Source: Eledone cirrhosa (taxonomy: Eukaryota). Taken from it: 64,000 bases of DNA. The stretch covers positions 234,794,001-234,858,000 of the forward strand of contig OZ024743.1 in the NCBI GenBank assembly GCA_964016885.1. Reading direction: 5' to 3'. The position numbers were made by a program, and so were the translations under genes. How positions within the stretch are numbered: position 1 is the first letter of the stretch; each line of letters begins with the position of its first letter. Below are positions 2,441-62,513 of the stretch, in pieces. The notes beneath the pieces were generated by a model, which did not search any database, was not told the DNA's origin, and saw nothing but the letters and a program-made list of their open reading frames with translations.

Positions 2441-2638
2441 AAGGCAGTTTCAGGAAATCAATATTTACCTTTCAGAAGTTTATTATGTAAAACAGTAATT
2501 TTTTAGTTAATAAACGAGTAGCTATGAAAATGTTAAAACTCACTTTTCGACAATACAATGATATATAAATGAAAGGAAATACTTGTTAAATTAATCTTTA
2601 TGCTGTGTCATGAAAATGCTCATACTTTATACTTGCAG

Positions 2639-2853
2639 GCAGGACCTTCAAACCAAGTTTTGTCCAAGTGTTGGCTCCACCAGTTCAAATAAGCAAACCA
2701 AAACCAAAGCCTGTGGAAAAATCTTGGCCGCGGGAGAAACGAATATTTGTTGTTGCTGATCATCAGCGTTGTGTTATGTCCAATCTAGCATCTCTTTGGA
2801 AAAGTGGAAAAGTGTGTGATGCCGGTATTGGTAATGGCTCATCTACTGTGATG
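2639..2853 (+). CDS. BTB/POZ N-terminal-half exon, copy A (paralogue of 43111-43405)
   Basis: Acceptor tttatacttgcag (2638; alternative AG at 2642 gives phase 2 like the paralogue); open frame ...KRIFVVADHQRCVMSNLASLWKSGKVCDAGIGNGSSTVM; donor ATG|GTAAGT at exactly the same codon as the paralogue. Confidence 0.8.
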
Positions 2854-3211
2854 GTAAGTATATTGCTCTAAACATTTGAGATTCTCTTAAACAACATTAT
2901 CTCTTAACATCTTGTACTGCATCAAACTGTGTTAGCAAGACTTTCTTAAAAGGTACAAAACAGCACTATTTACTCTAATATTTAGAAATTTAGATTAACA
3001 AACCATTTTTTCTGCTAAATTGTTACAGGATTTTAAGGATTAGAGAAATTCAGAGTATTTTCCTCCAAACTAATCATTTAGAATGTTTTCTTCTTTAGAC
3101 ACTAAGCCCTATTACTTGTAAGGGGCCAATATGCTTTATTGAATCAACTTAATTGTATTATTTGCACCTACTTTATAGACCCGACTGGAAATGAAATTTT
3201 TTGGTTACTTA

Positions 3212-9493: not shown

Positions 9494-9949
9494 ATGCAAA
9501 TGGATTCTAATAGGAAAATGAAACGGACTGCATATAATGCATCATTTAAACTGAAAGCAATTGAATATGCAGAAAAAAGTAACAACTGTGCAGCAGCAAG
9601 ATACTTTGGTATTTCTAAATGCAACATCAGGCATTGGAGAAAAATTAAAGACAAACTGAAACTAATGCCTAATTGTAAACAAGCTAATCGTGGTAAACAG
9701 GCAAAATATCCACAACTTGAGAAAGATCTGGTCAACTGGATAGAAAACAAGAGGAATGAGGGTTACATTATAACACAAAGCCATGTCAAACTCCAAGCAA
9801 TTAAAATGTCAAAGGTACCCAGGTATGAAATTAATGCTACCTTCAAATTCTCAAATGGATGGTGCACTAACTTTATGAAGAGGCACTCTCTATCAGTACG
9901 CCAGAGAAACAGGCTATCTCAAAAACCTTCATCTGATTTCGACCAGAAG
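9494..9949 (+). CDS. Variable exon V1: pogo-type transposase DNA-binding region (Brinker-like HTH + CENP-B HTH), 152 codons
   Basis: AYNASFKLKAIEYAEKSNNCAAARYFGI...IRHW and YPQLEKDLVNWI...FKFSNGWCTNFMKRHSLSVR; no stops; ends at AAG|GTAATG (phase 0); no DDE domain follows. Confidence 0.75.
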
Positions 9950-14632: not shown

Positions 14633-16730
14633 TACTCTTTTACTCTTTTACCTGTTTCAGCCATCCGGCTGAGGCCATGCTGGGGCACCGCCCTTGTTGC
14701 TACACATTTTATCTCCAGCCTGTATAGGTTGGCCACTGGTGTAGGAGGGAGTTTGTTGCTGCTGCCCTTAGGTTTCCCTCGTGTCTTGCTGTGGGCTCAT
14801 CCGGGATCCTGGATAACAAGGTGTCGAGATGTTTCTTAAAGACATCCACCTCCACGTCATGCAAGTCTCGCAGATGCCTCGGCAGCCTGTTGAAGAGTTG
14901 AGGGCCCTTGAATCCCAGGCTATTGCAATACCTGCTCCTTATTCTAGATGTGGAAGACGGGACCTTTGGCACCACACAGTGACGTCCTGTTCGACGGTTG
15001 GTCCAGCTCCCAATGCCAAAGTTTGGTGCTAGTCCTCCAGGATTTTCCACATGTAGATCACTGCGTATCTCTCCCGTCTTCGCTCCAAGGAGTAGAGGTT
15101 CAGTTCCTTTAGCCTCTCCCAGTAGCTTGTCTCCCTCATCTTGGCAATCCTCTTGGTGTAGCTTCGCTGGATTGCCTCAAGCTCCGTGGTTAGTTTGACA
15201 CTATGGGGTGACCACAGCTGGGAGCAGTAGTCCAGGCGGCTTAGGACAAAAGTCCTCCACAGTGTCAACATGGTGTCTCGATCTCTTGTAAGGAAAGTCC
15301 TCAAGATCCAGCCAGCGAATCGTCTACATGTTGTCGCCACCTTCATGATGTGTGAAGAAAAAGATGCATCATCACTCATGTCTATGCCCAGGTCTCGTAT
15401 CGATTTTGACACGGGGATATCGGTCCCTCCTGGTCCTGTGTAGCTGTGTTCCGCTATATTTGTGTTTGTGTTTGCAGGTTTGTATTGTAGGGCTTGGAAT
15501 TTGCCAGCATTAAACTGCATGTTGTTTTCTTCCGCCCATCTGTATATGGCATCCAGATTCTGCTGTAAGAGGGCAGTGTCAGCCGGGTTTTTGATTGCCT
15601 GTGCTACCTTAGTGTCATCAGCATAGCTAGTGAGGGATGTTGTTGCATGCACCACAGAGGGCATGTCCGAGAGAGCCACCAAAAACAGTAGTGGTCCCAG
15701 GACTGTCCCCTGGGGCACCCCACTTGTTATCAGTGTTTCCCTCGAGAGGGCCCCATTTGCTGCGACTGCCTGGCTTCTGTCCCTTAGGAAGCCATGCAGC
15801 CACTCACCTACTTTTCCAGTTATGCCGAGTCCGTGTAGTTTGTGACATTTCATTCCGTGGTCGACCTTGTCAAAGGCCTTCGCAAAGTCAAGATATATCA
15901 CGTCTACATGTGAGCTGTCTAGTAGTTGTCTCAGTAGCCAGTCGTAGTGATGTAGCAGCTGTGTAAGGCAGCTTCTTCCTGGGCGGAAGCCATGTTGGGT
16001 GCTAGTCAGGCGGTCATTTTCTTCGAGGAAAGTGATTAGTTTCTTTCTGACGACTCGCTCCATGACCTTACTGATATGCGACGTCAGGGAGACTGGCCTA
16101 TAGTTCTTGGCCTCCGCTCTACTACCTCCTTTATGGATAGGGCATATTGTGCCTTCTTTCAGCTCCCTGGGTAGTACACCGCTAGCCAAGGAGCTTCTGA
16201 AGAGCATCTTCAGTGGAGTTGCTAAGGCCCGCTTACATATTTTTAGGAGAACTGCTGGGAACCCATCAGGTCCAGCAGCCGAGTCTGTTCTAATTTCATC
16301 AATGGCGTACACCACATCCTCCTCCATTATGTCTATGTGGTTGATGGTTGCCATTTCTTGATGTAGTGTTGTGGCATCAAAGAACTCCTCTGGCTTCGTT
16401 ATTTGCATGTGCCTCAGTGGACATGTGAAGACACTTTTGTACTGTTCGTTCAGTATTTCACATATCTCTTGGGGATTTTCGGTTAATGAACCGTCCGTGT
16501 GGAAGAGTGGTCCAATCTTGCAGTGTACTGAGGCAGTTTCTTTTGCAAATTTAAAGAAGGCCTTAGGGTTTGTTTTAATGTTTTCTATGGCCTGTTCTCT
16601 TTCTTTGCCCTCTCATTCTCATGTGAAAGCTTGAGTGCAATCTCGGTGTCAAGTAGTGCACGTTTCAAATAGGATTCCTTCTTGTTTTGGTTTTGTTGAC
16701 TATTCAACTGGTTTGAGAGTTTAGTATACT
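14633..16730 (-). mobile_element. CR1-like LINE (RT domain to 3' end), cut by assembly gap
   Basis: ORF 15029-16408 with YRPVSLTS, QHGFR, YLDFAKAFD, GVPQG, YADD; frameshift into 14709-15050; (GTAAAAGA)2 tail abutting (TA)n. Confidence 0.92.
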
Positions 16731-16930
16731 NNNNNNNNNNNNNNNNNNNNNNNNNNNNNNNNNNNNNNNNNNNNNNNNNNNNNNNNNNNNNNNNNNNNNN
16801 NNNNNNNNNNNNNNNNNNNNNNNNNNNNNNNNNNNNNNNNNNNNNNNNNNNNNNNNNNNNNNNNNNNNNNNNNNNNNNNNNNNNNNNNNNNNNNNNNNNN
16901 NNNNNNNNNNNNNNNNNNNNNNNNNNNNNN
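16731..16930. other. Assembly gap (200 N)
   Basis: Run of N. Confidence 1.
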
Positions 16931-17269: not shown

Positions 17270-17605
17270 ATGGCTAACCAGCAAAAATCCAAACAGAACT
17301 GGTCTGATAATGAAATCGACATTCTAATAAACACATGGCATTGCCTTTCCCAAACAGAAAATATAGATGCTTCATCTCTGAACGACATTGCTAAACGTAC
17401 AGTTCAATTTTTGAAAACTCGATCTGAACAACAGATTCAAATAAATTAAAGCAAATCGAAATTGCTTTTAAATTAATCAATAAACATTTGGATAAACTAC
17501 GGTGTGTTTTCTCTTCGAATGCTGTCCAGCAGCAGCAACAACAACAACAGCAGCTACAACAGCAACAACAACAACAACAACAACAGCTACAACAACAACA
17601 ACAGC

Positions 17606-17636
<31 letters not shown>

Positions 17637-18429
17637 GTGTGAACCACTCCTTGATTCATCAACAATGGCCGATCTACTAAATGAAACTATTGACCCCCCA
17701 GTAGCCTCTGTCTCACAGCATGAAACGCCACATCCTTTCTCTGGCCCAGCAGTCCAATCATCACCACTGCCAACATCTCTGCCTACTACTACTACTACTA
17801 CTACAACATTTTTGTCTACTGCTATGTCAAGGAATTTACCTTCTAATACCAGAACAAGAACTCTCCCTCCCACAGTCCACAAAGGTCGTCAAATCCTACC
17901 CAAACCATCATCTACACCTCTCACAACACCCACACCCACATACCCACCCACTCGAAACCCCATCATTTGCCGCTACTCTCTACGCTATAGAATATGTACG
18001 GATAGTGGCTGCAAATTCACCCATTTACCTAGGACAAAACGATCTATCCCCACAAACAGCCACCACCATAATACATACTCTAATTTAACACCAACACAAC
18101 CACCAATAACTCAAACAAGGAATCCACAAATCTGCCGTTTTTCCCTGCGAGACAGATTGTGTTTAGACCGGGATTGTCCCTTTACCCATCTCCCGGGGAC
18201 CCGTCGGATAAATGAAAATAAAATTAAAAATAAAAGCAAAAACAAAAACCATAACCTACATAAAAATAACCACTACCACAGTCACCAACAGTCTTCTAAA
18301 CAGGAAACTTCTTCCTCTTTTTTAGCCATAATGAATCTGGCAAAAGAACTGGAAAAAAACATTCGAGCTATCACCCAGCACCACCCTCCACTATCACCCC
18401 ACTGCACAAACTCCCATTGCTGCCATTAA
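17270..18429 (+). CDS. LINE ORF1: Myb/SANT-like N-terminus, polyQ, two CCCH zinc fingers (one 1-nt frameshift near 17440)
   Basis: ATG 17270 [23 protein letters not shown]...RSEQQIQ; adding one A continues NKLKQIE into ORF 17488-18429; two C-x8-C-x4-C-x3-H motifs. Confidence 0.7.
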
Positions 18430-29847: not shown

Positions 29848-30219
29848 ATGGAGTTCACTCTGACAAAACGTGGCGGCAGAAAATTGCTATACAATGGGTA
29901 CGCTTATACTGTTGATAAAAAGAAGGATACTGTTACATATTGGAAATGTGAAGAAAGAGGAAAATGTGGAGGGCGACTTAAAACAATTAACGATGTTCTA
30001 CGAGGTTCTCCACCTCCACATTCTCACCCACCAGATGCTAGTAGAGCTGCTGTACTTAAAACAGTACAAAACATGAAAGCAAGAGCCAATGATACGGATG
30101 AAGTTACACGTACTATTATTCAGTGTTGTACATCAATATTTCCCCTAGAAGCAGCTGATTCTCTTCCCAAAAAGGAAAGTCTTAGCAGAATGATACAAAG
30201 ACAAAGGAAAATATCTGAA
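29848..30219 (+). CDS. Variable exon V2: FLYWCH zinc finger (MULE-transposase N-terminus), 124 codons
   Basis: FTLTKRGGRKLLYNGYAY...YWKCEERGKC...HSHPP, then LPKKESLSRMIQRQR; uninterrupted; ends GAA|GTAACA (phase 0, weaker donor); no catalytic domain follows. Confidence 0.7.
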
Positions 30220-37980: not shown

Positions 37981-38476
37981 TATATATATATATATAATTA
38001 ACCTTTATATTTTCAATAATGCAAAAAACATTTTTTTCGATGCTCAGTGTTGTTTTCTAATAATTGTTTCTACTTTAGGCACAAGGCCAGCAATTATCCA
38101 GTGCATTACTGCTACTTTATTTTATCGACCCCGTAAGGATGAAAGGCATCATTTGAAATTGTCTGTAAATAACTTTATATATCCAATAATGAAAAAAAGG
38201 CTCTAAAAATGTGTCAACAGGAAGCACTGGATGATGGCAATATAATATTTGTATGTGTAGTCTTTACAAAATATTCCGTTTTCATGTCATTAAAAAGGAA
38301 AAAGAAAACGAAAGTGTACAACCGACATAATACTTTCGTGTATGTTTATATTTCTTTTCCAATCTTTTATCAAATCTCTTGTCAAACAAACATAATTCAA
38401 GAATGTGTGGCAATCCTTCATAATACGACCGTAAACTTAAAATTAATTATAAATAGAAACTACATCTTTTCAAGTA

Positions 38477-38623
38477 CAAATTAAAATAATCTCGAAGCAG
38501 ATTGAAGTAAACTAGAAGCAAATTAAAATATTCTCGAAGCAAAACGAAATAATAATATATAACCTCGAAACAAATTAAAATAATCTCGAAACAAATTAAA
38601 ATAATCTCGGAGCAAATTAAATA
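38477..38623 (+). repeat. 21-bp tandem repeat CAAATTAAAATAATCTCGAAG (x6-7)
   Basis: Direct reading; ends ~100 bp upstream of the V3 ATG. Confidence 0.85.
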
Positions 38624-38722
38624 GTAGATACTTAGATGAAGCATTGTAGATGTTTATGTTTTGAATTTGACTCTGATTCGTTTTAAATTTAAATTAATTT
38701 CATCATTTGACTTCGTTTTTCA

Positions 38723-39154
38723 ATGCTACGATTACTTATGGAAGACGAAAGCCATGATAGCTTGTCTCAAGCTACAAGTTCTGGTATTTCACGAGGTGTT
38801 AAACAAGGAAGTAAGCGGGGGTCATACAAGAAGTCTGCACTTGAAACTCGTATGCATATACTGGCTGCCGCCGAAAGAGGAGAAGATTGGGAATCAATAG
38901 CTGCAGCTCATGGTGTTAAGAAGACAACAGCATATAATTGGGTGCGCAGGGATCGTGCATCACATTTGCACCGCGGAGGTGTCCGTGATAAAGTGAAGAA
39001 GATAAAACATGAACATATCGAATCACTTGTTGGCTGGTTAAACAAATGTCCACAATTAACATTGAAGAATCTTTGCGAACGTTTACAATCAACATATGGT
39101 TTGACTGTGTCCCAACAAACAATAGCAAGTCATCTCGATGGAAGAATGATGTTG
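38723..39154 (+). CDS. Variable exon V3: Tc1/IS630-type tandem HTH / winged-helix DNA-binding region, 144 codons
   Basis: ILAAAERGEDWESIAAAHGVKKTTAYNWV...RGG...PQLTLKNLCERLQSTYGLTVSQQTIASHL; uninterrupted; ends TTG|GTCAGT (phase 0). Confidence 0.75.
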
Positions 39155-40542
39155 GTCAGTAACAACTTTACAAACTCACTATGTGGAAATGAATTTCATT
39201 AAATCGTTTGGCATAACTACAGTTTACTTTCAACATATTTTGTAGTAGGCTAAATGTAAACTCGGAATTTCATATTGATAACGAATATTGTTAATTAAGC
39301 TAGTGTCATAGATTTTCTATAGGAACGTAATGTCATTTCTACTACTATGAATTACGAAATAAATATACTTTTAATTTAATCGTAATCCACCTGTTCGAAA
39401 ACACACCTCTGCAAAATTTCATTTCTCGCGAGGGTGCTTGGCTGTTTCAGCGCATCAGCCTCGCCATCACCCGAAGCAACGCTGCGAGTGTGCTGTCTTT
39501 TGCTCTGGTGTTGCTCCGTTGTTCACACCTTCCTTTACAGTTTCTTTAATATTGTCGCAGTGAAGGAATATATCTTTCGTTATATCATCCTTTGTAGTGT
39601 TACCGAGGCATTTGTAATGTTGTTTATGTATATATTTAAAACATATTTGTTATGTTATTCTACTGTAAATTAACTGTTTATATTTTCATTCTGAAGGAAT
39701 TGCAAACGATTTGTAATGTTATATATAAAAGCTAATAAACGGTTTACTAATATAAAATATACAGAATTAAGAAAGTTATGAGAAAACAAAGCCAGAATGT
39801 AAACATTAAACTGTAGTTAAGCCTATATATATAATATACAAAGTGTCCTCCCAAAATGTATGCACACTTTGATTACCTGTACAGGGAATATTTATTTAAA
39901 TGATTTTTCAATTTTCATGTACATGTAATATATTTTTCAATAAAATTATAAAACTCATTAGTAAAAAATCAATAAGATAAACAAAACTGCTTAATTAATG
40001 TTTTATAATTTTATTTAAAATATAATAGTATCGTTTATTTAATGTTTGTAGAACATGGTTTTGTTTATATTAATATATATTTTTTAGCTATACTAGTTTA
40101 ATATGAGATGGTGTGTTGCTTGTGAAGGAGACATACATGAAAGTATTATGCTCGTTGTTTAATTTTTTAACAACATATAAAATATAAGCTATATAACACG
40201 ACAAAATTACGGACGAAACTCCCCCACCTACATAAAATTTATGTGAATATGAATAATAAATACTATCTATTTTTATTAACGACTTTCATAGAATGCAGGT
40301 GTGTATGCGCGCGTATGTTTCGTTCCTGCTTCGCTTAACAAATACTTGGCTGTGTGAGAATTCGTTTAACGTTCACCACTTCGAACAAACTGTTCATTGA
40401 GTTATACGTTTAGCGAGAGGCGTACGAAATTACGTTTTCAGTTTAATTTATTTTAATGCATGTTAACTGGAGGTAAACTTAAGGCAGAATCTAAGATTCC
40501 TTGCTTTCTCTCCAGTTTTGCGAAATAAATTTTCGAATAATA

Positions 40543-40977
40543 ATGGCACCCAGACCAAAAATAAAAAAAAAACGGAGAATCTTAACGATTCAACAAAAGC
40601 AGGAAATTATAAATAAGTACGAACAAGGTTTTAAAAAGAGAGTACTTTGTACTGAATACGGACTTCCTTCTTCGACTGTTGCAACCATATGCGCCCAGAG
40701 AGAAAGACTAAAATCTGTGAAGGTAATTGATAAATCGACGAGAGTGTTTAAAAGCAGGTCATTCATAGTGGAAGTAGAGAAGCGATTGTTAACTTGGATT
40801 AAAGAAAATCATACAAGGGATCTCATAAATGTTGAAGTTATTCGCGAAAAAGCCCTAGACTATTATGAACAGGTGAAGAGGAGCTTCCCTCGTTGTCTTG
40901 GGAGTGAAGTTCGTCCATTTAAGGCAAGTCTAGGCTGGTTTCATAAATTTAAAAAGAGAGCTGAAATTACGAATTTG
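40543..40977 (+). CDS. Variable exon V4: Tigger-type psq-HTH + CENP-B HTH, 145 codons
   Basis: KRRILTIQQKQEII...YGLPSSTVATI...VEKRLLTWI...IREKAL...FKASLGWFHKFKKR; ends TTG|GTAAGT (consensus donor, phase 0). Confidence 0.85.
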
Positions 40978-41084
40978 GTAAGTGTATGGTACTATCCTCA
41001 TATTTGTCTGCTAATAATGCAGCACTTTCCAAGTTTAGATGTTAACCATCCAATGAGGCTGAAATTAATTAACCAATTATAATC

Positions 41085-41345
41085 GAAGCCAAGCATTCTT
41101 TATAAAGTATATCGGCAATACCAGGACTTAACAAACAAAATTATTTTTTCCAGCCTGTGGCGTTCGAGACGTTTGGTGGAGTTGGACCACTGACAGCGAA
41201 GTTCTTGTCCTCACTGGCAGCTCGCCTTACTGAGGTGTCTGTCAGTTGATGTTCATGAGGGTGCCTGGTTATTTCAGCACCTTAACCTCACCATCACCCG
41301 TGGTAATGCTGCGAGCGTGTTGGCTTGCCTGAAAGTGTACAGTTA
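41085..41345 (+). mobile_element. CRE-like RLE 3' fragment (further pieces ~29200-29280, 39425-39500, 41700-42110 minus, 43710-44030, 52200-52780, 54495-54570 minus)
   Basis: FQPVAFETFGGVG...EGAWLFQHLNLTITRGNAASVL. Confidence 0.7.
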
Positions 41346-42809
41346 ACCCCCAAGGTGTGAGATGTTGCCTGCCGATTGTCGCACTTGGTGGTGAATTGTG
41401 TCCCCCCCCCCCCCCCTTCCTTTATTATTTTTGTTCATGAATTTATATTTTTGTGTCATTATACAACATTTGCCCTTCTGAACGAATTGCCAGCAATTGG
41501 TTATGTTATTTATGTATATATTTAAAACATATTTGCAACGTTATTCTGTAAATTTATACAACTATAATAAAAATATTATATATGTATAGTTAGATATAAA
41601 TTAATAGTATTAATAGTAATTAATAGGTCATGATTTACAAAACTAAATCAATAAAAAAAATTGTGTAGAAGAAAAAAGGGAGAAGACATGCACACTTAAT
41701 TACATGCTATAACAGGTAATGTTGATGTTGCCATCTAAACATTTTTGAGGCAAAGCTAAGGCACAAGAATAGCCAAGTGCCCTCTCAAACATCACTTGAT
41801 ACAAATGTTTCAAATGCCACTAGCTGAAAAATTTGATTTCTCACTAAATCACTGTCCATAGCATTTAAGATGCAAAAGAATATAAGGCATCTTCTAACTG
41901 AAGGGAAAAGTTAAAACCATCGGTCTTCTCATCGAACCTGGGCAATTCAGCCAGCTTTAGAATTCAAAGGATATTGACTTTGGCTAGGGTCTGTTTTATG
42001 ATTAGGTTCAACTAGGTGTGGCAAGCGAAGCAGCCCCCATTTAGTCATAGCAATCCGTGAAGACCCATGGAATCAAGGGGCTTGCCACATCAATATTTCA
42101 ATCTCCCACAGACATTGGAATGAGTAAGCCATAGATCTTTGTCACAAGCAGATCATCAACCCAAATACATAGAAAGCTGGTGGCTTCTTGAATATTGATC
42201 AAAATGAGAGTTGAAAATATATTTCAAAAATAGATTGTCCCAAACCCTCGGAGTTAATTTATCCTGCTCTGAAACTTATAAACCTCACTCCCTCCTCTGT
42301 AGTGAAGCTGTTTTTCTTTTGTTCTAAAGGTTAACCATTTGTGGGTTTATGTATATATAAACATACATATAATATATACATATGCACATCATTTTACATC
42401 CATTTTCTATGTTGGCATGGATTGTGCGAGTCCTCATGCTCCTCAGTTGAATGCCTTTCCTTAACACCAACCACTTTTTGAGTGTATTGGCTGCATATTT
42501 CATGGTATCAACACTAAAGAGATTGTCAAAGGGTCGTCTTAACTCTGTTGTCTCAGTTCATTCATCGAGGTGTAATGAATGTATTTTATCATGTTTGTCT
42601 TTCTATACTGGCATGGGTTTGACACATGTTTGTATGTATATATGTGTGTGTGTCTATATATCATCATTTAACATTCAGTTTCTCTACTAGTAAGGGTTGA
42701 ACATGTATATACATGAAACTTTATATTTTCTAAATATTGTGAAAATGTTTTTCTACATAAAAGTTCTCAATTGTTTACTGTTTTTAAAGTATTTATATTA
42801 TTATTGTAG

Positions 42810-43015
42810 ACTAGTATATCAAAGAAACAATTATATCAACTCAAAAAGAAGCGACTGCCTACCTCTTCTACAACAGTGCTTATCCCAGATAACCCCCATC
42901 TTCCACCTTCACCTCCAGCTACCAAAATTCCCCAAAAGCAAATTTATACTAAGGTGTTTCGAGAAGAAAATTTGAAAAAGGAGGAACAGTGTCAAGAAAA
43001 TGTTTTTACTGACAG
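42810..43015 (+). CDS. Constant exon C1 (basic/Pro-rich linker; not in ORF track)
   Basis: Acceptor ttattgtag|ACT; open phase-0 frame TSISKKQLYQLKKKRLPTSS...QENVFTD (68 codons + AG); donor AG|GTAAAT (phase 2) joins 43111 in frame across a 95-nt intron. Confidence 0.82.
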
Positions 43016-43110
43016 GTAAATTAATGAGGTTTTGACATATATTTTCAATATGCTGCAATTTTGTACTGAAGAAAAAATATATTTGTCATGGCTTTTATCT
43101 TAAATTTCAG

Positions 43111-43405
43111 ACAAACCATTAATCATATTTCTGAGATGGCTGGGAAACCTCATGAAATTTCAGCTCAAAACTCTATTTGTGTGGTGGATGAATCTGAAAA
43201 TGTGCCACATCCAATTCAATTTTCAACTCCTGAACTTCCGATGCCTGTTAGGCAACCAAAGTCCATTGAAAAACCACAACCTCAAGGGAAGAAAATATTT
43301 ATTCTTGCTGATCATCAGAGAACTGTAATGTCCAACTTGGCATTGTTATGGAAGAGTGGAAAATTATGTGATGCTGGCATTGGCAATGGTTTATCTACAG
43401 TGATG
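43111..43405 (+). CDS. Constant exon C2: BTB/POZ N-terminal half, copy B
   Basis: Acceptor aaatttcag (phase 2); ...KIFILADHQRTVMSNLALLWKSGKLCDAGIGNGLSTVM; donor ATG|GTATGT (phase 0). Confidence 0.88.
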
Positions 43406-45777
43406 GTATGTTAGACAAAGACTTTTATTTGTATTTATTAGTTTCTTTTTCTATGTATTTCTACATAAACATGTAGTTAAATAATCTTGGAAAAAAATTA
43501 CTGTTAGAAGTGGGGGGTCAGCTTATATTCGGGGTTAATATTTTGATGATTTTTACCAACTTAAAATTCTACATTGCAAGAATTGCTGGAACAATATGCT
43601 TTTAGCAATCATATAGTGTTATTTCTATATAAAATAAAGTTGTCTCCTGTTTCTTTTACTAAATATTTTCCTTGATCTTTGTATTTCCATTTCACAACTC
43701 TATCGCTACAGTACCGGTCGCCTTCCACGTGATGCTGCTCTCAACGAGGTCATAAAGCATGGCTAGAATGCTGCAGGTATCTTTCTATTCTGCGGTGGTA
43801 AACCCCTTGTCTGGGATGTGCAATCTGCCACTAACCCAGGCTCTGCTGCACTTCGGGCTGAGGAGGCTAAACTCTCCAAGTATCAGTCACTCTCCGACAG
43901 GTTTGCAGTCTCCTAGCAGTGGAGACCTCTGGTGTCTTTGGCCCTAGGGCTACCTCCCTACACACCACCATAGGCACTTAGCTGGCGAGCTGCAGGTGTG
44001 AGCCTTGCGAGATGGAATGGTTCTTCCAGGAAAATGCCTTTTCTGTTTTCTCCACCGGGGCCCTGGGACCCCATTTGTTCATAATAGTGAGAGATGGAGG
44101 CGATGACAATGGGAGTTTGGCTCCCCTGTAGTTGGACCTGGTGTACGTGTGTGTGTATGTTTATTTCTATTCATTCGATATGACAGTATCTACACTTTAT
44201 CATACATCAGAGGACCTATGCACTTTATCTATAGTAATCTCTAGATTGCCTCTTGTTTGGTCTGCTTCTAACTGGATTTGGTCTTACCAACAAAGCAATG
44301 TATCTTCATTACTCATGTACCATGTACAGCTACAAAGAAATAGCTCTCTACAAATGTTAGGTTTTTGTTGCTGACAATTTTATGATCACATTTACTTTAC
44401 ACATTCTAGACTTCATCAAAGCCTAAGAATATTTTACTCTTAATAATTTTTTATCTTATTTGTTAAAAGAAACATTAACTGTGAGATTATACGTAGGAGT
44501 TCTGCCACCACCATTTACTAGCACATTCTAGAGAATATCCCCAAAATGATTGTCTGCCTTTGATCCATAACACTCTACAATAACTGCTCCATCATCATAC
44601 AGTATCATCATCATCACTGTTTTATGTCCAGTATCTCTCCTATAATTCCAAGATAGTTATTACCATAGTTTTTGCTCCTCTGGACTTGAATATAAACCAC
44701 TTAAATCTAAGTTTCAACTGTGTATCCACCTTTTGTGTTATTACTCCTGTAATATCTACAATCTTCTCAGTACTGATTGAACTAACAATTAGTTCAATTA
44801 AGAATGCTATGGCATGGACAAAAAGTTACTAAAAACAATAACTTATAAAAAGATGTGACATTCTTAAAAGAATTCATGGTATCTTGAAACTAGTTCTAAA
44901 GTTTAAAAATCATATTTTTCACTGTTTTACAAACTGTAAAGTCTTCTTTATGTCCCTATAAATCAATGTTTCTGGAATGAATTTTAATGATTCTCTGAAG
45001 AAAAAATTCCGAAAGAAATATTTAAAATAAAAACAATATTTAAAAACATTTTTCTATTTTCTTTTTATTGATCTTTTCAAAATATATCCATAAAATATCA
45101 ATAAGAGATTGAGAACATGTTGTTTACAAAAGAGAAAGTAGTATATAAATATTTCTGTTATTGAATTCACTAATGCAATACATTAAGAAGTGAAGTTTGA
45201 TTTCAACAAAATTATGTTTTTTATAAGTTCTTTGGTTGTTTGAAAGGTTTACAACTAATATCTGATTGGAAGATAGAAATATAAATTATAAACCTGCAAT
45301 AAAGTTTCATTAAAAGAATGGTATCCAGCTGTAAAGTTTTAACCAGGAAAAAAGGGATAAACAAAGGAAACATGAACTCTGCAAACTGTTGCACAGGGGA
45401 GCCTTTGAATAAAAACTTATATAGATTAGAGACTCTTTGGTTCTGTTACAGACAACCTCTTTAGTGTCAGTGGCATGTGAGATATGTCCAACCCATGCAA
45501 AACAGTAAAACTTTCTGAAAGTTCAGGAAAAAAGTTTTCATAAAATTGAAATAAAAATAGAAACTTCTCAGTAATATTTTGACGTATAAACTCTGCATGT
45601 AATTCTCATAAAATATTTAGTTGTACTAGGCAGCTATTATGCTATTAGCCAATTAAAAAAAAATCTGTAATTCAAAGTGAAGTAACCCAGATTTCATTCA
45701 TTAATCTCATTTTCTGTAGCCTGAAACAGGTTTTTTTTAACATAGCTATTATAGGTAACTTCTCAGATAAATTTTAG

Positions 45778-46119
45778 GCACATGGCTTAGTGGTTAGAGC
45801 ATTGGCCTTGCAATCGAAAGGTTGTGAGTTCAATTCTCAGACCAGGTGATGTGTTGTTTCCTTGAGCAAGACACTTTATTTCACAGTGCTCCAGTTTACT
45901 CAGCTGTAGAAATGAGATGATAGGGACTGGAGTCCATATCATTCCACTGCAAAGTGGTCGTGGAGGTGCCACAGCAAAAAAGCACCCAGCACTCACTGTA
46001 AATGAGGTTGGTGTTAGGAAGGGCATCCAGCTGTAGAAATCAAGCCAGAATCAGTTCGCGTCTCACCCTTGCAAGCAGGGAAAAGTGGACGTAAAATGAA
46101 ATGATGATGATGATGATGA
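45778..46119 (+). mobile_element. Full-length tRNA-derived SINE with RTE-derived tail
   Basis: A box TGGCTTAGTGG, B box GAGTTCAATTC, central TCCTTGAGCAAGACACTTTA...CTCAGCTG, 3' CACCCTTGCAAGCAGGGAAAAG...(TGA)n shared with RTE end at ~62460-62513. Confidence 0.9.
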
Positions 46120-46616
46120 CTCTCTAGTAGGCAAATATAATTATTTTGCTGAAAAGTCTGGTAAACCTGCAAAGGAATATTAACAGGTAGTGCACATGTT
46201 CATTCAATTTCTATTTTTAAACTAATTTTAAATAACTCACTCCTATTTTCTTTGGCTTCAAAACCACTGATATAGGCTGACCAGTAGTACTTTAAAACTT
46301 CTGTTGAATACAATAGTTATGGTCGAGTCATAATACACAGAAAATCTTTGGTATTGGAATGCAATAGAAAAGTAAAATATTTGTTATAGCTGGGATGGAC
46401 CAATTTACTGTCATTTTAGAAATGTTTTATAAGGCTTCAAATACAGCAGTAAAACTGAGGATATTTATTCAGGAGAATATCTACTTGTAACATTCATAGT
46501 TTGATTAAAGAAAAAGTTTGAAGTTAAAAGAACAAATTATTTTCAAGTATTCTTTGGTATTAATATTTCATAAATCCCACAACTGTTTTTTCTTATCTTT
46601 TTTTTTTATGTTTCAG

Positions 46617-47639
46617 GTACATAAAGTTGTTTTATCTGCTGTGTGTCCTAAGCTGTTGTCAGTATTTGGTACAGATATGCTTTCTCAGAGGTTTCTTCAA
46701 ATTAACTTACCAGAAGAAGTTAGCACAGAAGCTTTAAATGCCTTTGCTGAATACATGTACAATGGGATTCTAGATCTTGATACAGATATTTTACAACAAT
46801 TAAAAATCATTGCAAAACAATTAGACATGAAAGAATTTGAACAATTGTGTGATAGTCAACTGCCCAGTCCAACACCTCAGCAATCTACATCAACTGCTAA
46901 TGTATTTGGTGGTTCAAGCCAAATACAGAATGATATATCAATGTCACCAAACACCACTACAACACCAATTCAACCAGTTTTATCTTTTCCGTCTATATCA
47001 TCTAAATCTCTTTCAACTGTCCGTACACAGGTCATTAATATTAAAGATAAGATTTCAAAAACTGAACTATCACTACACAAGGAAAATAAAGTTAATGTGT
47101 ATGGACCTGAATCTGAAGTTGTCTTAATAGATACAAGTGTAGACAGCAGTTCTGGAGGTTTTGTCATGGTTCCCAGTGTGAAAAATGAACCTATGGAGCA
47201 TGAAAATGACAATTATCAAGAACATAATAATGAGTTTTACATTTCCACTCCAGTTTCAATCGGTTCTCGGACATTAACCAATAGTTTGAATTCCAAAGTT
47301 GCATCAACTACAGAATTTGTTTTACCATTTTCAGACAGCATAGATAGCAATGTAACAACAAATGTGATACATGGAACATCATCTAAATTAAAATCTAATG
47401 TATTTGAAAGCTCTCTAGTTTCTGACTTATCTCCTGTATCATGTATTGAAGAGAAAATGTGTTCCCAGTCCAGTCCCATAAGAAAAGATCCTTCTAAACA
47501 ACTAAATCGAACTGGTAGCCATGAAGGTGTCTATCCTATAGAACTTTTTACAGCAGGAGGAGACAGTTTACCATTATCATCATCACAAGTTACCAATGTT
47601 AAAAATATAGGTTTATATAAAACAAATGATCTTACCTGA
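46617..47639 (+). CDS. Constant exon C3: BTB/POZ C-terminal half + S/T-rich tail, with stop codon
   Basis: Long polypyrimidine acceptor ...tttcag|GTA CAT AAA (phase 0); VHKVVLSAVCPKL...EALNAFAEYMYNG...IAKQLDMKEFEQLC completes BTB (LCD...HKVVLSA...YMYNG); TGA 47637-47639, followed by ATTAAA. Confidence 0.9.
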   Translation, partial: VHKVVLSAVCPKLLSVFGTDMLSQRFLQINLPEEVSTEALNAFAEYMYNGILDLDTDILQQLKIIAKQLDMKEFEQLCDSQLPSPTPQQSTSTANVFGGSSQIQNDISMSPNTTTTPIQPVLSFPSISSKSLSTVRTQVINIKDKISKTELSLHKENKVNVYGPESEVVLIDTSVDSSSGGFVMVPSVKNEPMEHENDNYQEHNNEFYISTPVSIGSRTLTNSLNSKVASTTEFVLPFSDSIDSNVTTNVIHGTSSKLKSNVFESSLVSDLSPVSCIEEKMCSQSSPIRKDPSKQLNRTGSHEGVYPIELFTAGGDSLPLSSSQVTNVKNIGLYKTNDLT

Positions 47640-58874: not shown

Positions 58875-61800
58875 TTTTTTGCGCGGGGACATAGAAATAA
58901 TTGGGCTGGATACCCGATCGTGCAGTTAAACCACTGGGAGTGAAGGACCCCTAGCCCTTGTCAGAGCATTCTTCTAGGAGAAGGCATCTCAGGAAACTGG
59001 GTTAACTCCGACATAAAACCTGCGGCTCAGTAGTTACTGATGATGTTGATCTTTTCTTCTTTTTGGGTGATAGCTACTGTCGCTCAGAGAGTGGGATTGG
59101 CTCAGTGCACAGTCTTTCCTCACTTTAAAAATATTCTTCACACACAGGCATTGCACGATTGCATTAATTAATAACTATTAATAGTATTATTGTTATTATT
59201 GTTATGACCATGCTGAAAAATAGAGGGGTAGAGAGGGCCTATGGGTCCAGTAAGACATCCTCTCTAGTGTTGGTGGCACGAATAAAAGCACCCAGTCCAT
59301 GCTGTAAAGTGGCACTGGTGTTAGGAAGGGCATCCAACCAGTGTATCAATACCAAAACAATTATGAGCACAACAACAAATATATATTGCAATAACTGCGT
59401 AAACAGCAATAGTACTAATCATGTTAGGGCTGTGCACGGTAGTGGGGTGGCTGGTGCGGCCATGTGCAGGAACCCTCCGACCGTCTTCAAGCAATCGCAC
59501 TACAGGAAAAGGAACAACAAAAATATGAAGACGCCGCATCTCAGAGTTGCAACACTTAAAAGTAGATCTGGTGAAATAGTGGAGATGCTGGAGAGAAGGC
59601 ATGTGGATGTGTGCTGCGTGCAAGAAGTGAGATAGAGAGGTGCCTCTGCGAGACTAATTGCAGGCAAACATGTTAGTTATAAGCTTTTCTGGGTAGGTAA
59701 GGATGATGGGTTAGGGGGAGTAGGCATTTTCCTAGCTGAGAGATGGATCAATAAGACAATAGAGGTAGTTCGAGTTAATAATAGACTAATTAAGCTTAGA
59801 TTAGTTGTAGGCAGGAGACTACTGACAATCATCTCTGCCTATGCTCCCCAAGCAGGCCTAGGTAAGGAAGAGAAAAACTGCTTTTATGAGCAACTTTTAC
59901 AAACAGCCGTAATGACAGAGGATGGAGACATCGTTATGCTAGCAGGGGACTTCAATGGTCATGTTGGACAGCTCCAGGATGGTTACACTGGGGTACATGG
60001 TGGGCATGGTTACGGCTCAAGAAATGAAGGAGTGAGACTTCTTGAATTTTGTGATGCAAGTACACTGACCATTTGCAACACTAACTTTGAGAAACCTGCC
60101 AACCACCTAATAACCTACAAATTAGGCGAGCACATAAGCCAGATTGACTTCTTACTAGTTAGGCAGCGGGACAGGCAGATGGTGTCAAATACCAAGGCAT
60201 ACCCTGGGGAAGAATGTACCCCACAGCATAGGTTAGTTGTTAGTGATATCTCAGTAAGCAAGAGACGGAATGAGACATACAGGAAGGTGTGGAGAAGAAA
60301 GGTTTGGAAGCTAAAAGACCTTTCACTAAAATACAAATTTAGGAAAGCCCTTCAAGATGTGTATGATGAAAAAGAAGATGATTTAGAGTCGTATGACATA
60401 GATGATAACTGGAATTTCTTACGTGACAACTTACTGCAGGCTACTGATGAAACTTGTGGCTGGAGCAGAGCTCCAACCAGACAGAGAGTGACCTGGTGGT
60501 GGAACAGCACGGTATATAGGGCCATTAGAGACAAAAGACTAGCATGGAAGGCTTGGAAAAAGGGTGGGAGTAGAGAAGCTAGACGTCAGGTGTACTTAGC
60601 ACGCAGGGATGCTGAGAGTTGGACGTTTGCCAATGTTCTGCGACGGGAAGATCAGAGACGTGGTGTTCCACATTGCAAGGCAGTGTCAATGCAAATCAGG
60701 ATGTTGTTGGAGACAACATCCTGATTTGCATTGACACTGCCTTGTCCGGAATGATGCCGGTGTACTTAGTGTCATAAATGATAAGAAAAAGGAGGCCTGC
60801 AAATGTCATTATGAGAGATTGATGAATATGGAGAACGAATGGGAGAGAGAGAAATTACCCTCAGTAGATCCGTCAGAGGGACCAGCTATTGAGATTGACG
60901 AATATAGGGTCCAAGAGGCGATTAAGGAAATGAAAAATGGTAAGGCCGCTGTACCGTCGGGGATAGTTGCTGAGATGCAGAAGGCATCAGGGGACGTAGG
61001 CACTAAATTGGTTGCACGCATCATCAATCAGGCTATATATGGCGGTGTCATATCCAAAAACTGGTGAGGCAGTATTCTCATAAATTGCTACAAAGGTAAA
61101 GGGGATGCTCTGGAGAGGAGCAATTATAGGGGTATAAAACTGATGGATCAGGTTATGAAAGTGGCAGAAAGGATATTAGCACAACTAATTAGAGAAAGGG
61201 TCAAACTAGATGAGATGCAGTTTGGTTTTGTGCCTGGGAAAAAGTACAACAGATGCCCTCTTCTTGGTGAGACAATTACAAGAGAGGTTCTTAGAGAAGA
61301 ATAAGCCACTATACTTAGCTTTTGTTGACCTAGAGAAGGCCTTTGATAGGGTACCCCGATCTGTCATCTGGTGATCCCTATGGAAACTAGGTGTTGAGGA
61401 ATGGCTTGTGAGGACAGTGCAAACTTTGTACAGAGGTGCTGTCAGTAAAGTCAGGGTAGTAATGTAGTTTAGTGAGGAATTCCAGATACAAGTAGGAGTA
61501 CATCAGGGTTCGGTCCTCAGCCCGCTCTTGTTCATTATAGTTCTCCAAGCCATAACAGAGGAGTTTAAGACTGGCTGTCCATGGGAACTTCTCTATGCTG
61601 ACGATCTGGTTCTTATAGCAGAATCAGTAGACGAGCTAGAGAATAAATTCTGGCTATAGAAACAGCAGTTGCAATCAAGAGGACTGAGAGAGAACCTAGC
61701 TAAGACAAAAGTGTTGATGAATAGAAAAGAGGACAAAACTCTGATTCCGTCAGGGAAATGGCCATGTTCGATATGCAGAAAAGGAACTGGCATAAATTCT

Positions 61801-62513
61801 ATAAAATGCACACAATGCAGATCTTGGGTACACAAGACATGTAGTGGGATAGCAGGCAAACTAACAGGTAGGGAGAAATACGTATGTACTGGGAAATTAG
61901 ACAGTAGAAGTCGCATTGATAGACACATTTTTCAAATGCAGGCGGGTGCTATAGAATTGGTTGATAGCTTCCGGTACCTAGGAGATCAGATTAACATGGG
62001 AGGGGGGTGTTCCGAGGCCATAGTATCTAGAATAAGGACGGGTTGGAAGAAGTTTAGGGAACTGCTTCTGCTGACGAAGAAGGGTTTCTCCCTGTGTACG
62101 AAAGGCCGGTTATATGATGCCTGTGTGAGGAGCGCGATGCTGCATGGTAGAGAGACTTGGGCAGCAACTGCAGAGGATATGAGACGGCTGGAGAGAAATG
62201 AGGCAAGCATATTCCGTTGGATGTGTTGAGAGGGATAGAATGTAGTGTGCGAGAGAGGAGACTGCAGTGGTATGGACATGTGATGCGCATGGAGGATGAC
62301 CGATGGGTGAAGAAGTGCCAGGAAATGCCAGTTGAAGGAAGACATAGTAGAGGTAGACCACGAAAAATATGGGCGGAGGCAGTGAGAACAGACCTCAGAT
62401 TGCTGAAGCTCACAGTGGAGATGACGAAGGACCGTGACAAGTGGAGAGATGCTGAATAAGACCCGTCCCACCCTTGCAAGCAGGGAAAAGCGGCCGTAAA
62501 ATGATGATGATGA
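58875..62513 (+). mobile_element. Near full-length but inactivated RTE LINE in POLR2D intron 4
   Basis: APE (VCCVQEVR, ISAYAPQ, GDFNGHVG, QIDF, QHRLV), RT (FVDLEKAFD, HQGSVLSP, YADD), PHD-like Cys cluster, (TGA)n tail; multiple stops and frameshifts. Confidence 0.93.

Follow-up and report, generated by a model that had tools for sequence, protein, structure and literature searches.

A BTB gene of Eledone cirrhosa with candidate alternative first exons of transposon origin

Does a BTB domain that stands behind a transposase-type DNA-binding domain belong to a single fusion gene, or is this DNA-binding domain only one of several heads that the same BTB body can carry? The question is raised by a four-exon gene of Eledone cirrhosa, located in a stretch of 64,000 nucleotides (nt) that we call the window (C4:234,794,001-234,858,000 in the 3.0-Gb genome) and whose protein relatives are octopod. 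We propose, with good confidence, that this octopod gene is expressed and that its transposase-type exon, V4, is one of several alternative first coding exons (V2 and V4, likely V3 and possibly V1), all used with three shared exons, C1 to C3, that encode the BTB part. The resulting proteins are likely sequence-specific chromatin regulators with exchangeable heads.

The exons of this gene, all on the + strand, are V4 (40543-40977, 435 nt), C1 (42810-43015, 206 nt), C2 (43111-43405, 295 nt) and C3 (46617-47639, 1023 nt). Joined together, they give 1959 nt, i.e., 652 amino acids (aa) and a stop codon, with no internal stop; the intron phases are 0, 2 and 0, and all three introns are of the GT..AG type. 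This chain had been proposed by the first-pass annotation, and both its splicing in silico and end-to-end orthologues (see below) confirm it. V4 is a variable first coding exon of 145 aa that ends at a phase-0 donor (TTG/gtaagt). Pfam finds in it CENP-B_N (residues 8-56, E 9e-11) and a helix-turn-helix (HTH) of the Tc5 type, HTH_Tnp_Tc5 (residues 77-143, E 5e-11), a combination that we read as a pogo-type bipartite DNA-binding domain. The architecture first suggested was right for the Tc5 HTH and the BTB domain; HTH_psq, which it also contained, is absent from the five Pfam matches of V4, where CENP-B_N is found instead. Catalytic (DDE) remnants were sought behind the heads and none was found. 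An acceptor-like ctccag lies 27 nt 5' of the V4 ATG, and the CpG-rich stretch upstream of V4 (40243-40542, + strand) may be its promoter and 5' untranslated region: the observed/expected CpG ratio is 1.57 at V4 (-300 to +149), against a background median of 0.46.

The constant part begins with C1, which enters in phase 0, leaves in phase 2 and encodes a basic, proline-rich linker. The last 39 codons of C2 (from ~43289) encode the N-terminal extension of the BTB domain and the start of its core, so that the first part of the domain sits at the end of C2; C3, the last constant exon, carries the BTB core (46617-46862), a Ser/Thr-rich tail and the stop, and Pfam recognizes BTB at its positions 25-106 (E 4.5e-7). 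The transposase-derived domain and the host BTB thus occupy different exons. In the protein, the head (residues 8-143) precedes the BTB domain (~290-394), as the first-pass annotation had stated, and BTB is not at the N-terminus, unlike in the ZBTB/TTK group. No zinc-finger family was found behind it.

Two orthologues, both labelled merely as uncharacterized in RefSeq, align with this protein from end to end and in the same register over the V4/C1 junction: isoform X1 of LOC106877745 in O. bimaculoides (XP_014782240.1, 646 aa) and isoform X1 of LOC115209904 in O. sinensis/vulgaris (XP_029634353.1, 636 aa). Indeed, the V4/C1 junction falls on the same residue in the annotations of three Octopus species (bimaculoides, sinensis and vulgaris). 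The identities to the O. bimaculoides and O. sinensis orthologues are 78 and 77% for V4, 57 and 59% for C1, 68 and 69% for C2, 83 and 85% for BTB, and 47 and 46% for the tail. Within V4, whose conservation was judged on the protein level, the two HTH motifs are the best-conserved parts. V4 is also single-copy: the runner-up of its 138 genomic matches is 41% identical, so that the genome holds no close source transposon family for it. Transposase-like proteins of 546, 614, 380 and 390 aa match the window over the heads only, V4 being 39-40% identical to the N-termini of the 546- and 614-aa genomic open reading frames (ORFs), and the DNA-binding structure of CENP-B (1hlv) is among the matches of the orthologue head (E 4.6e-6). 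Single in the genome and conserved across species, V4 qualifies, on its sequence, as domesticated.

The RNA material consists of four runs of a single study (X1-X4). Runs X1-X3 gave ~1-kb contigs over introns and exons alike and were excluded as expression evidence; X4, whose library type is not on record, was taken as RNA because it contains a GT..AG joint from 43015 to 43111, with a depth of 14.3. This joint demonstrates that C1, the linking exon deduced by the first-pass annotation, is spliced. One X4 contig covers C2 and continues into unaligned letters at the 3' end of this exon, another (40356-40855) enters the V4 ATG unspliced, and unspliced contigs are found upstream of V3 and V4; such contigs cannot show where transcripts start. 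Two further contigs stop exactly at a donor, the first at 30219 (V2, 23 unaligned letters) and the second at 39154 (V3, 12 unaligned letters).

No X4 contig spans the V4 donor, and the V4 frame stays open for 34 codons beyond it, up to a stop near 41080. Both facts would suit a separate small domesticated gene ending at this stop, in which case the BTB gene would start at or after C1, from ATG 43136, and the joined orthologue models would be annotation artefacts. We regard this as very improbable: the junction is placed at one and the same residue by three Octopus annotations, C1 lies upstream of ATG 43136 and is nevertheless protein-conserved and spliced, and V4 ends at a strong gtaagt donor in the required phase.

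V4 is not the only head in front of C1. V2 (29848-30219, + strand), an alternative first coding exon of 124 aa, encodes a Mutator-type FLYWCH domain (Pfam E 1.5e-10), has a CpG ratio of 1.27 and ends at a phase-0 donor (GAA/gtaaca); it has a single intact copy (runner-up 37%). Isoform X2 of the orthologue, in O. bimaculoides and in O. sinensis/vulgaris, has the V2 head (65-66% identical) at its start, followed by the constant part of isoform X1. Two heads, V4 and V2, are thus annotated in the orthologues, and two further candidates, V3 and V1, lie in the window. V3 (38723-39154, + strand) is a likely alternative first coding exon of 144 aa with a Tc1/IS630-type HTH (Pfam HTH_23/HTH_32), a phase-0 donor (TTG/gtcagt) and a single intact copy (runner-up 48%). 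In O. bimaculoides and O. vulgaris, a different BTB paralogue has a whole Tc1 transposase as an exon, and V3 shares 74-77% identity with the HTH of that exon; a Tc1 family that would supply an exon of the window gene here is, in Octopus, an exon of another BTB paralogue and present with its whole transposase. At the second BTB cluster of E. cirrhosa, only a decayed piece of this family is found (285,964,909-285,965,215). Either the exon moved, or one Tc1 family was captured twice. Direct repeats with a 21-bp period (38465-38637, + strand) lie upstream of V3 and may be what remains of one terminus of the transposon from which V3 came. V3 was also considered as a recent, intact Tc1 insertion, a reading ruled out by the single copy, the lack of a catalytic part and the RNA contig end at the donor.

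V1 (9494-9949, + strand) is the least secure of the four heads. This candidate first exon of 152 aa encodes a Brinker DNA-binding domain and a Tc5 HTH (Pfam E 5e-13 and 4e-16, respectively), ends at a phase-0 donor (AAG/gtaatg) and has a single intact copy (runner-up 43%). A scaffold gap of 200 N (16731-16930) separates it from V2, so that its linkage to the gene crosses this gap, in which more heads could be hidden. V1, V2 and V3 each have a phase-0 GT directly behind the domain and give open products of 631-659 aa with C1-C3. All four heads are intact, single-copy and on the same strand, and in each of them a phase-0 donor follows the DNA-binding domain; no convincing terminal inverted repeats were found around V1-V4.

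V1-V3 could still be unrelated transposon debris in the spacer of a pogo-HTH/BTB fusion that stands alone and has a single isoform. No other head is as close to C1 or as well conserved as V4, V1 is supported neither by the orthologue search nor by CpG content, and fragments of the pogo-, Mutator- and Tc1-like types are common in the genome. On the other side, Octopus has an orthologue isoform that uses V2, the donors of V2 and V3 are where X4 contigs stop, and all four heads are intact single copies trimmed at the end of the DNA-binding domain. We therefore give this explanation very little credence and retain alternative heads on one BTB body.

The same design is found on a larger scale just upstream. 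A BTB paralogue, orthologous to O. bimaculoides LOC106877732, ends ~9.2 kb upstream of the window. The RefSeq isoform names of LOC106877732 reach X36 (15 of the 32 main-cluster members being listed). Among the listed isoforms, the N-termini are THAP, CENP-B/Tc5, FLYWCH, Psq, Brinker, Tc1-HTH and DUF3504. We call this paralogue the master locus. Scanning 3343 ORFs on both strands, we found at least 22 head ORFs in the 350 kb upstream on C4, from 226 to 14 kb before the window, a lower bound obtained with known heads only as queries; all head ORFs of the master are on the + strand and none on the - strand. On the unplaced 88-kb contig C581 (27423-77761), seven intact heads and a broken one are found together with the first of the joining exons, and by its content this contig would fit into the scaffold gap located 133 kb upstream of the window.

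In the master locus, the heads are followed by three nested joining exons and then by C1. The phase of the best-scoring donor equals that of the next joining-exon acceptor in 27 of 29 heads, i.e., 3/3, 6/6 (phase 1), 11/12 and 7/8 in the successive tiers; the broken CENP-B-type copy on C581 (in two frames), the joining exon J3 and an exon on scaffold C1 (see below) were left out of this count. The third joining exon, shared and 96 nt long, lies ~35.8 kb before the window (L012:4190-4286). It encodes the C-terminal half of several THAP fingers, so that the zinc finger itself is built by splicing. CpG content also sets the heads apart: the median observed/expected ratio is 1.14 at 30 head starts, two of them positioned a few bases off, against 0.46 in 3000 random windows (p 1.8e-11), and 0.09-0.30 in C1-C3 of the window, the C1 of the master (0.95) being an exception. 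Such a pattern would be expected of unmethylated promoters over methylated gene bodies, and we infer from it that the heads may have separate promoters.

One O. bimaculoides master head, that of isoform X18, has its intact counterpart (77%) elsewhere, only on scaffold C1, not to be confused with the exon of the same name, from C1:342,788,672 onward (L053:1501-2131). There, the donor is at the same residue, and the exon lies 133 nt before an aminoacylase-1-like ORF (PDB 1q7l, E 1e-6), whose ATG is preceded by in-frame acceptors according to our reading of the sequence. This exon could be a misplacement, a fusion to the enzyme gene or a case of trans-splicing. Its location on another scaffold, with the donor kept at the same residue, favors the view that trans-splicing, known from mod(mdg4), is the main way in which the constant exons receive their heads, in place of cis-splicing from separate promoters. 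On the other hand, every head found at the locus is in sense and upstream, and the donor phase of each tier suits the joining exon that comes next downstream, which is what cis-splicing would require; the displaced exon may belong to the aminoacylase-1-like gene or be misplaced, the array being partly on an unplaced contig already. We consider large-scale trans-splicing improbable and keep cis-splicing as the proposed route.

How are the two loci related? The window gene shares the three-exon constant layout of the master, and its C3 has 79% nucleotide identity with the last exon of the master over 1085 nt. In a BTB tree of 30 rows and 126 columns, it groups with the named orthologues and one more paralogue pair (93/93). 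V4 is at most ~36% identical to any master head and is, for this reason, not a recent copy of one. The window gene may thus be a daughter of the master locus, born by tandem duplication of the constant exons. The tail of its protein (window 46863-47639) is 65% identical to that of the master paralogue, against 46-47% to its own orthologues, owing either to faster drift in Octopus or to gene conversion in E. cirrhosa. The orthologue tails, for their part, lie further from the master tail than the tail of the window gene does. The remnant of a further copy of the master constant region lies at 2482-3197 (+ strand, exon-like part 2639-2856); it has 84-92% nucleotide identity with the master, and in it the C1 acceptor with the first 23 nt of C1 is joined, out of frame, to the 3' portion of C2. 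Elsewhere in the window, long ORFs at 15032-16612 (-), 59168-60721 (+) and 61660-62226 (+) resemble fragments of the reverse transcriptase and endonuclease of long interspersed nuclear elements. A 333-aa ORF rich in Gln, Thr and His (17428-18426, +) contains two Cys/His repeats, gives no Pfam hit at E 0.1 and may represent ORF 1 of the neighbouring retroelement family.

The head-first design extends beyond these two loci. Two other paralogue pairs carry different heads on one body (P0098/P0099 and P0071/P0223). The cuttlefish entries include family members and one head-first protein (P0019; cluster of P0069), which would make the design older than the octopod-decapod split. A profile search gave 199 matches at E<=0.001, the best 150 of which were listed; among ten matches checked by name, the strong named ones come from octopods, Argonauta and cuttlefish. 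A second cluster of E. cirrhosa (C4:285.92-286.08 Mb) contains six BTB bodies, with sense head-like ORFs before the first three and heads of the CG-1, THAP, FLYWCH, Brinker/Tc5 and CENP-B types. Outside cephalopods, the BTB of a Lymnaea protein (E 3e-8) stands late in the sequence, and the N-terminus of this protein matches nothing in the head set used. P0109, P0113, P0240 and P0115, a Lymnaea protein and relatives, combine a late BTB with a conserved repeated N-terminal module that has no Pfam match. Such proteins are possibly a gastropod relative of the head-first design.

What kind of BTB domain do these heads precede? From residues 279-283 onward, the orthologue aligns to the BTB domains of BCL6, ZBTB17/18 and NS1A-BP, and its predicted Atlas model aligns over 270-397 to BTB proteins with TM scores of 0.75-0.84. 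The PDB and Atlas neighbours are dimerising domains of the ZBTB/BCL6/SLX4/Kelch type, and the domain appears to carry the N-terminal extension of the dimerising subtype. The TTK motif FxLRWN is absent from this extension in the window gene and in the paralogues compared. The same host-domain relatives (ZBTB, Kelch and SLX4) rule out a transposon origin of the BTB itself, which is how PMC10027918 words it.

The following mechanism would account for these observations. Each head is the N-terminal part of a transposase, without the catalytic part, trimmed by a phase-0 donor behind the DNA-binding domain, and the heads are joined to C1 in the orthologue annotation and, in part, in the RNA contigs here. 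The heads would be cis-spliced to the shared exons, each from its own unmethylated promoter, so that promoter choice selects the isoform. A DNA transposon inserted upstream in sense orientation could bring its promoter along with a head, the only further requirement being a donor of matching phase. By analogy with established BTB biology, the BTB domain and its N-terminal extension would dimerise; isoforms with different heads, if they bind DNA, might pair, and exert repression by recruiting co-repressors or organise chromatin at two DNA sites. The window locus would have arisen when the constant exons of the 30-head locus were duplicated in tandem, the daughter keeping or capturing heads of its own.

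Several points weigh against this interpretation. The V4-to-C1 joint is unseen in this species; X4 has zero cover at 40870-41034, which explains its absence and says nothing either way. That the letters behind the V2 and V3 donors belong to C1 is our deduction. X4 also contains intronic contigs at a depth of 4-4.5, near the 3.5-6 of the head contigs, so that the mere presence of a contig says little and the exact contig ends constitute the evidence. For V1, none of three candidates was an orthologue at E<=1e-25 (search range 83-266 aa), its CpG ratio (0.58) is background-like, and an orthologue isoform of this gene bearing V3 or V1 was not found. As three of the four window donors were chosen by us, the four-out-of-four phase match in the window is no independent count; likewise, the donor search was centred on the alignment ends, and for this reason we do not lean on the binomial figure for the 27 of 29. 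The BTB domain, 83-85% identical between species here, evolves faster than the master BTB, near-invariant among octopods, and the gene may be a minor or relaxed paralogue. Finally, PMC12062965 reports that Tc1/mariner HTHs captured in Caenorhabditis F-box proteins are non-transcriptional.

This precedent, from F-box A2 proteins, leads to another use of the same architecture, in which the heads would be protein- or RNA-contact modules and the BTB an adaptor of the ubiquitin-ligase type. The best PDB sequence match of the BTB, the Kelch-family structure 6n34 (E 1e-7), goes in the same direction. BACK and Kelch domains are however absent from the proteins P0055 and P0056, the heads come from many unrelated folds (HTH, THAP, FLYWCH, Psq, CG-1 and FAR1-like) whose common property is DNA binding, and in V4 the two HTH motifs are what is most conserved. 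An adaptor function is therefore unlikely in our view, if less so than the other alternatives, and we continue to favor chromatin regulators with exchangeable DNA-binding heads.

To which known system does the locus belong? In mod(mdg4), a constant part with an N-terminal BTB is trans-spliced to 3' exons to give 31 mRNAs (PMC13490949); lola, of similar design, gives 20 (PMC11426971). The likeness lies in one BTB body served by many alternative DNA-binding exons, mostly FLYWCH in mod(mdg4). In these two genes, a TTK-type BTB is N-terminal, the variable exons are 3' and trans-splicing is used, whereas here the order is mirrored, the heads, all in sense, come first and stem from several transposon superfamilies, and the BTB has no FxLRWN, the TTK motif (PMC11426971). 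The locus works like mod(mdg4) and lola in mirror image; exon order and BTB type place it outside their group. The first-pass annotation had drawn attention to the reversed domain order, which is not unique. Precedents are two Drosophila TTK-type proteins with mid-protein BTBs (PMC11426971) and KCTD1 isoform b, in which a transposon inserted upstream of a BTB gene placed a Crypton-derived domain (DUF3504) N-terminal to BTB (PMC3212892). KCTD1b shares with the window gene the transposon-derived N-terminal domain and the C-terminal BTB, and DUF3504 heads occur in the master locus too, but it has a single captured head where an array is found here; KCTD structures are absent among the 32 PDB matches of the orthologue.

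Octopus itself offers the third precedent. Most of its CENPB and THAP factors carry BTB/POZ according to PMC10027918, and these are probably the same proteins as those described here; they were counted there as separate genes, and the words "isoform" and "fusion" occur zero times in the main text. The order of head and BTB alone is thus not new and is the lesser point; the exon arrays are the point, and they are undescribed in the literature that we found, as judged on abstract openings and with few subscription journals covered. Clustered protocadherin and UGT1A genes of vertebrates also have tandem variable first exons spliced to shared constant exons; each of their variable exons has a promoter of its own, as may be the case for the heads here. 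The variable exons of these genes arose by duplication of one ancestral exon, whereas the heads here are unrelated domains from different transposons, and nested joining exons are present at the master locus.

The comparison with vertebrate KRAB-transposase fusions, drawn at first, fails on direction. In eight of the nine such fusions examined in bioRxiv 10.1101/2020.05.07.082677, capture occurs via an acceptor upstream of the transposase ORF. KRABINER-type genes resemble the window gene in having a transposase DNA-binding domain in its own exon, spliced to a host regulatory domain. However, the host KRAB is N-terminal there, whereas here the transposon exon comes first, supplies the donor and is one of several alternatives. 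POGK, to which a likeness had been suggested, is unmentioned in the main text of the KRABINER preprint. The domesticated host-transposase fusion that had been proposed holds in the sense of a single-copy, conserved, pogo-type exon without DDE, and has to be amended to one isoform of a multi-head locus.

A broader reading is possible, and we advance it tentatively, as the less probable side of the question. Cephalopod BTB loci could be standing capture platforms, where upstream DNA transposons, donor-trimmed to their DNA-binding domain, turn into additional first exons that bring their promoters along, and where capture continues in one lineage after another. Promoter choice among at least 30 heads, combined with the pairing of isoforms and paralogues through BTB, would then make up a combinatorial regulator code, the cephalopod counterpart of KRAB zinc-finger diversity. 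Were this true, such a code could control transposons and cell identity.

In conclusion, the window gene would be a small daughter locus with two conserved and two lineage-specific candidate heads, and the simplest member of its family in which head choice, head-specific DNA binding and head capture can be tested. With the master locus, it offers a second, apparently independent version of the mod(mdg4)/lola principle, mirrored and drawn from several transposon superfamilies. Many of the "separate domestications" in the published Octopus CENPB and THAP counts may be isoforms of a few loci. If the choice of heads holds, with three to four heads here and about 30 at the neighbouring locus, dozens of DNA-binding regulators would be produced from few genes.

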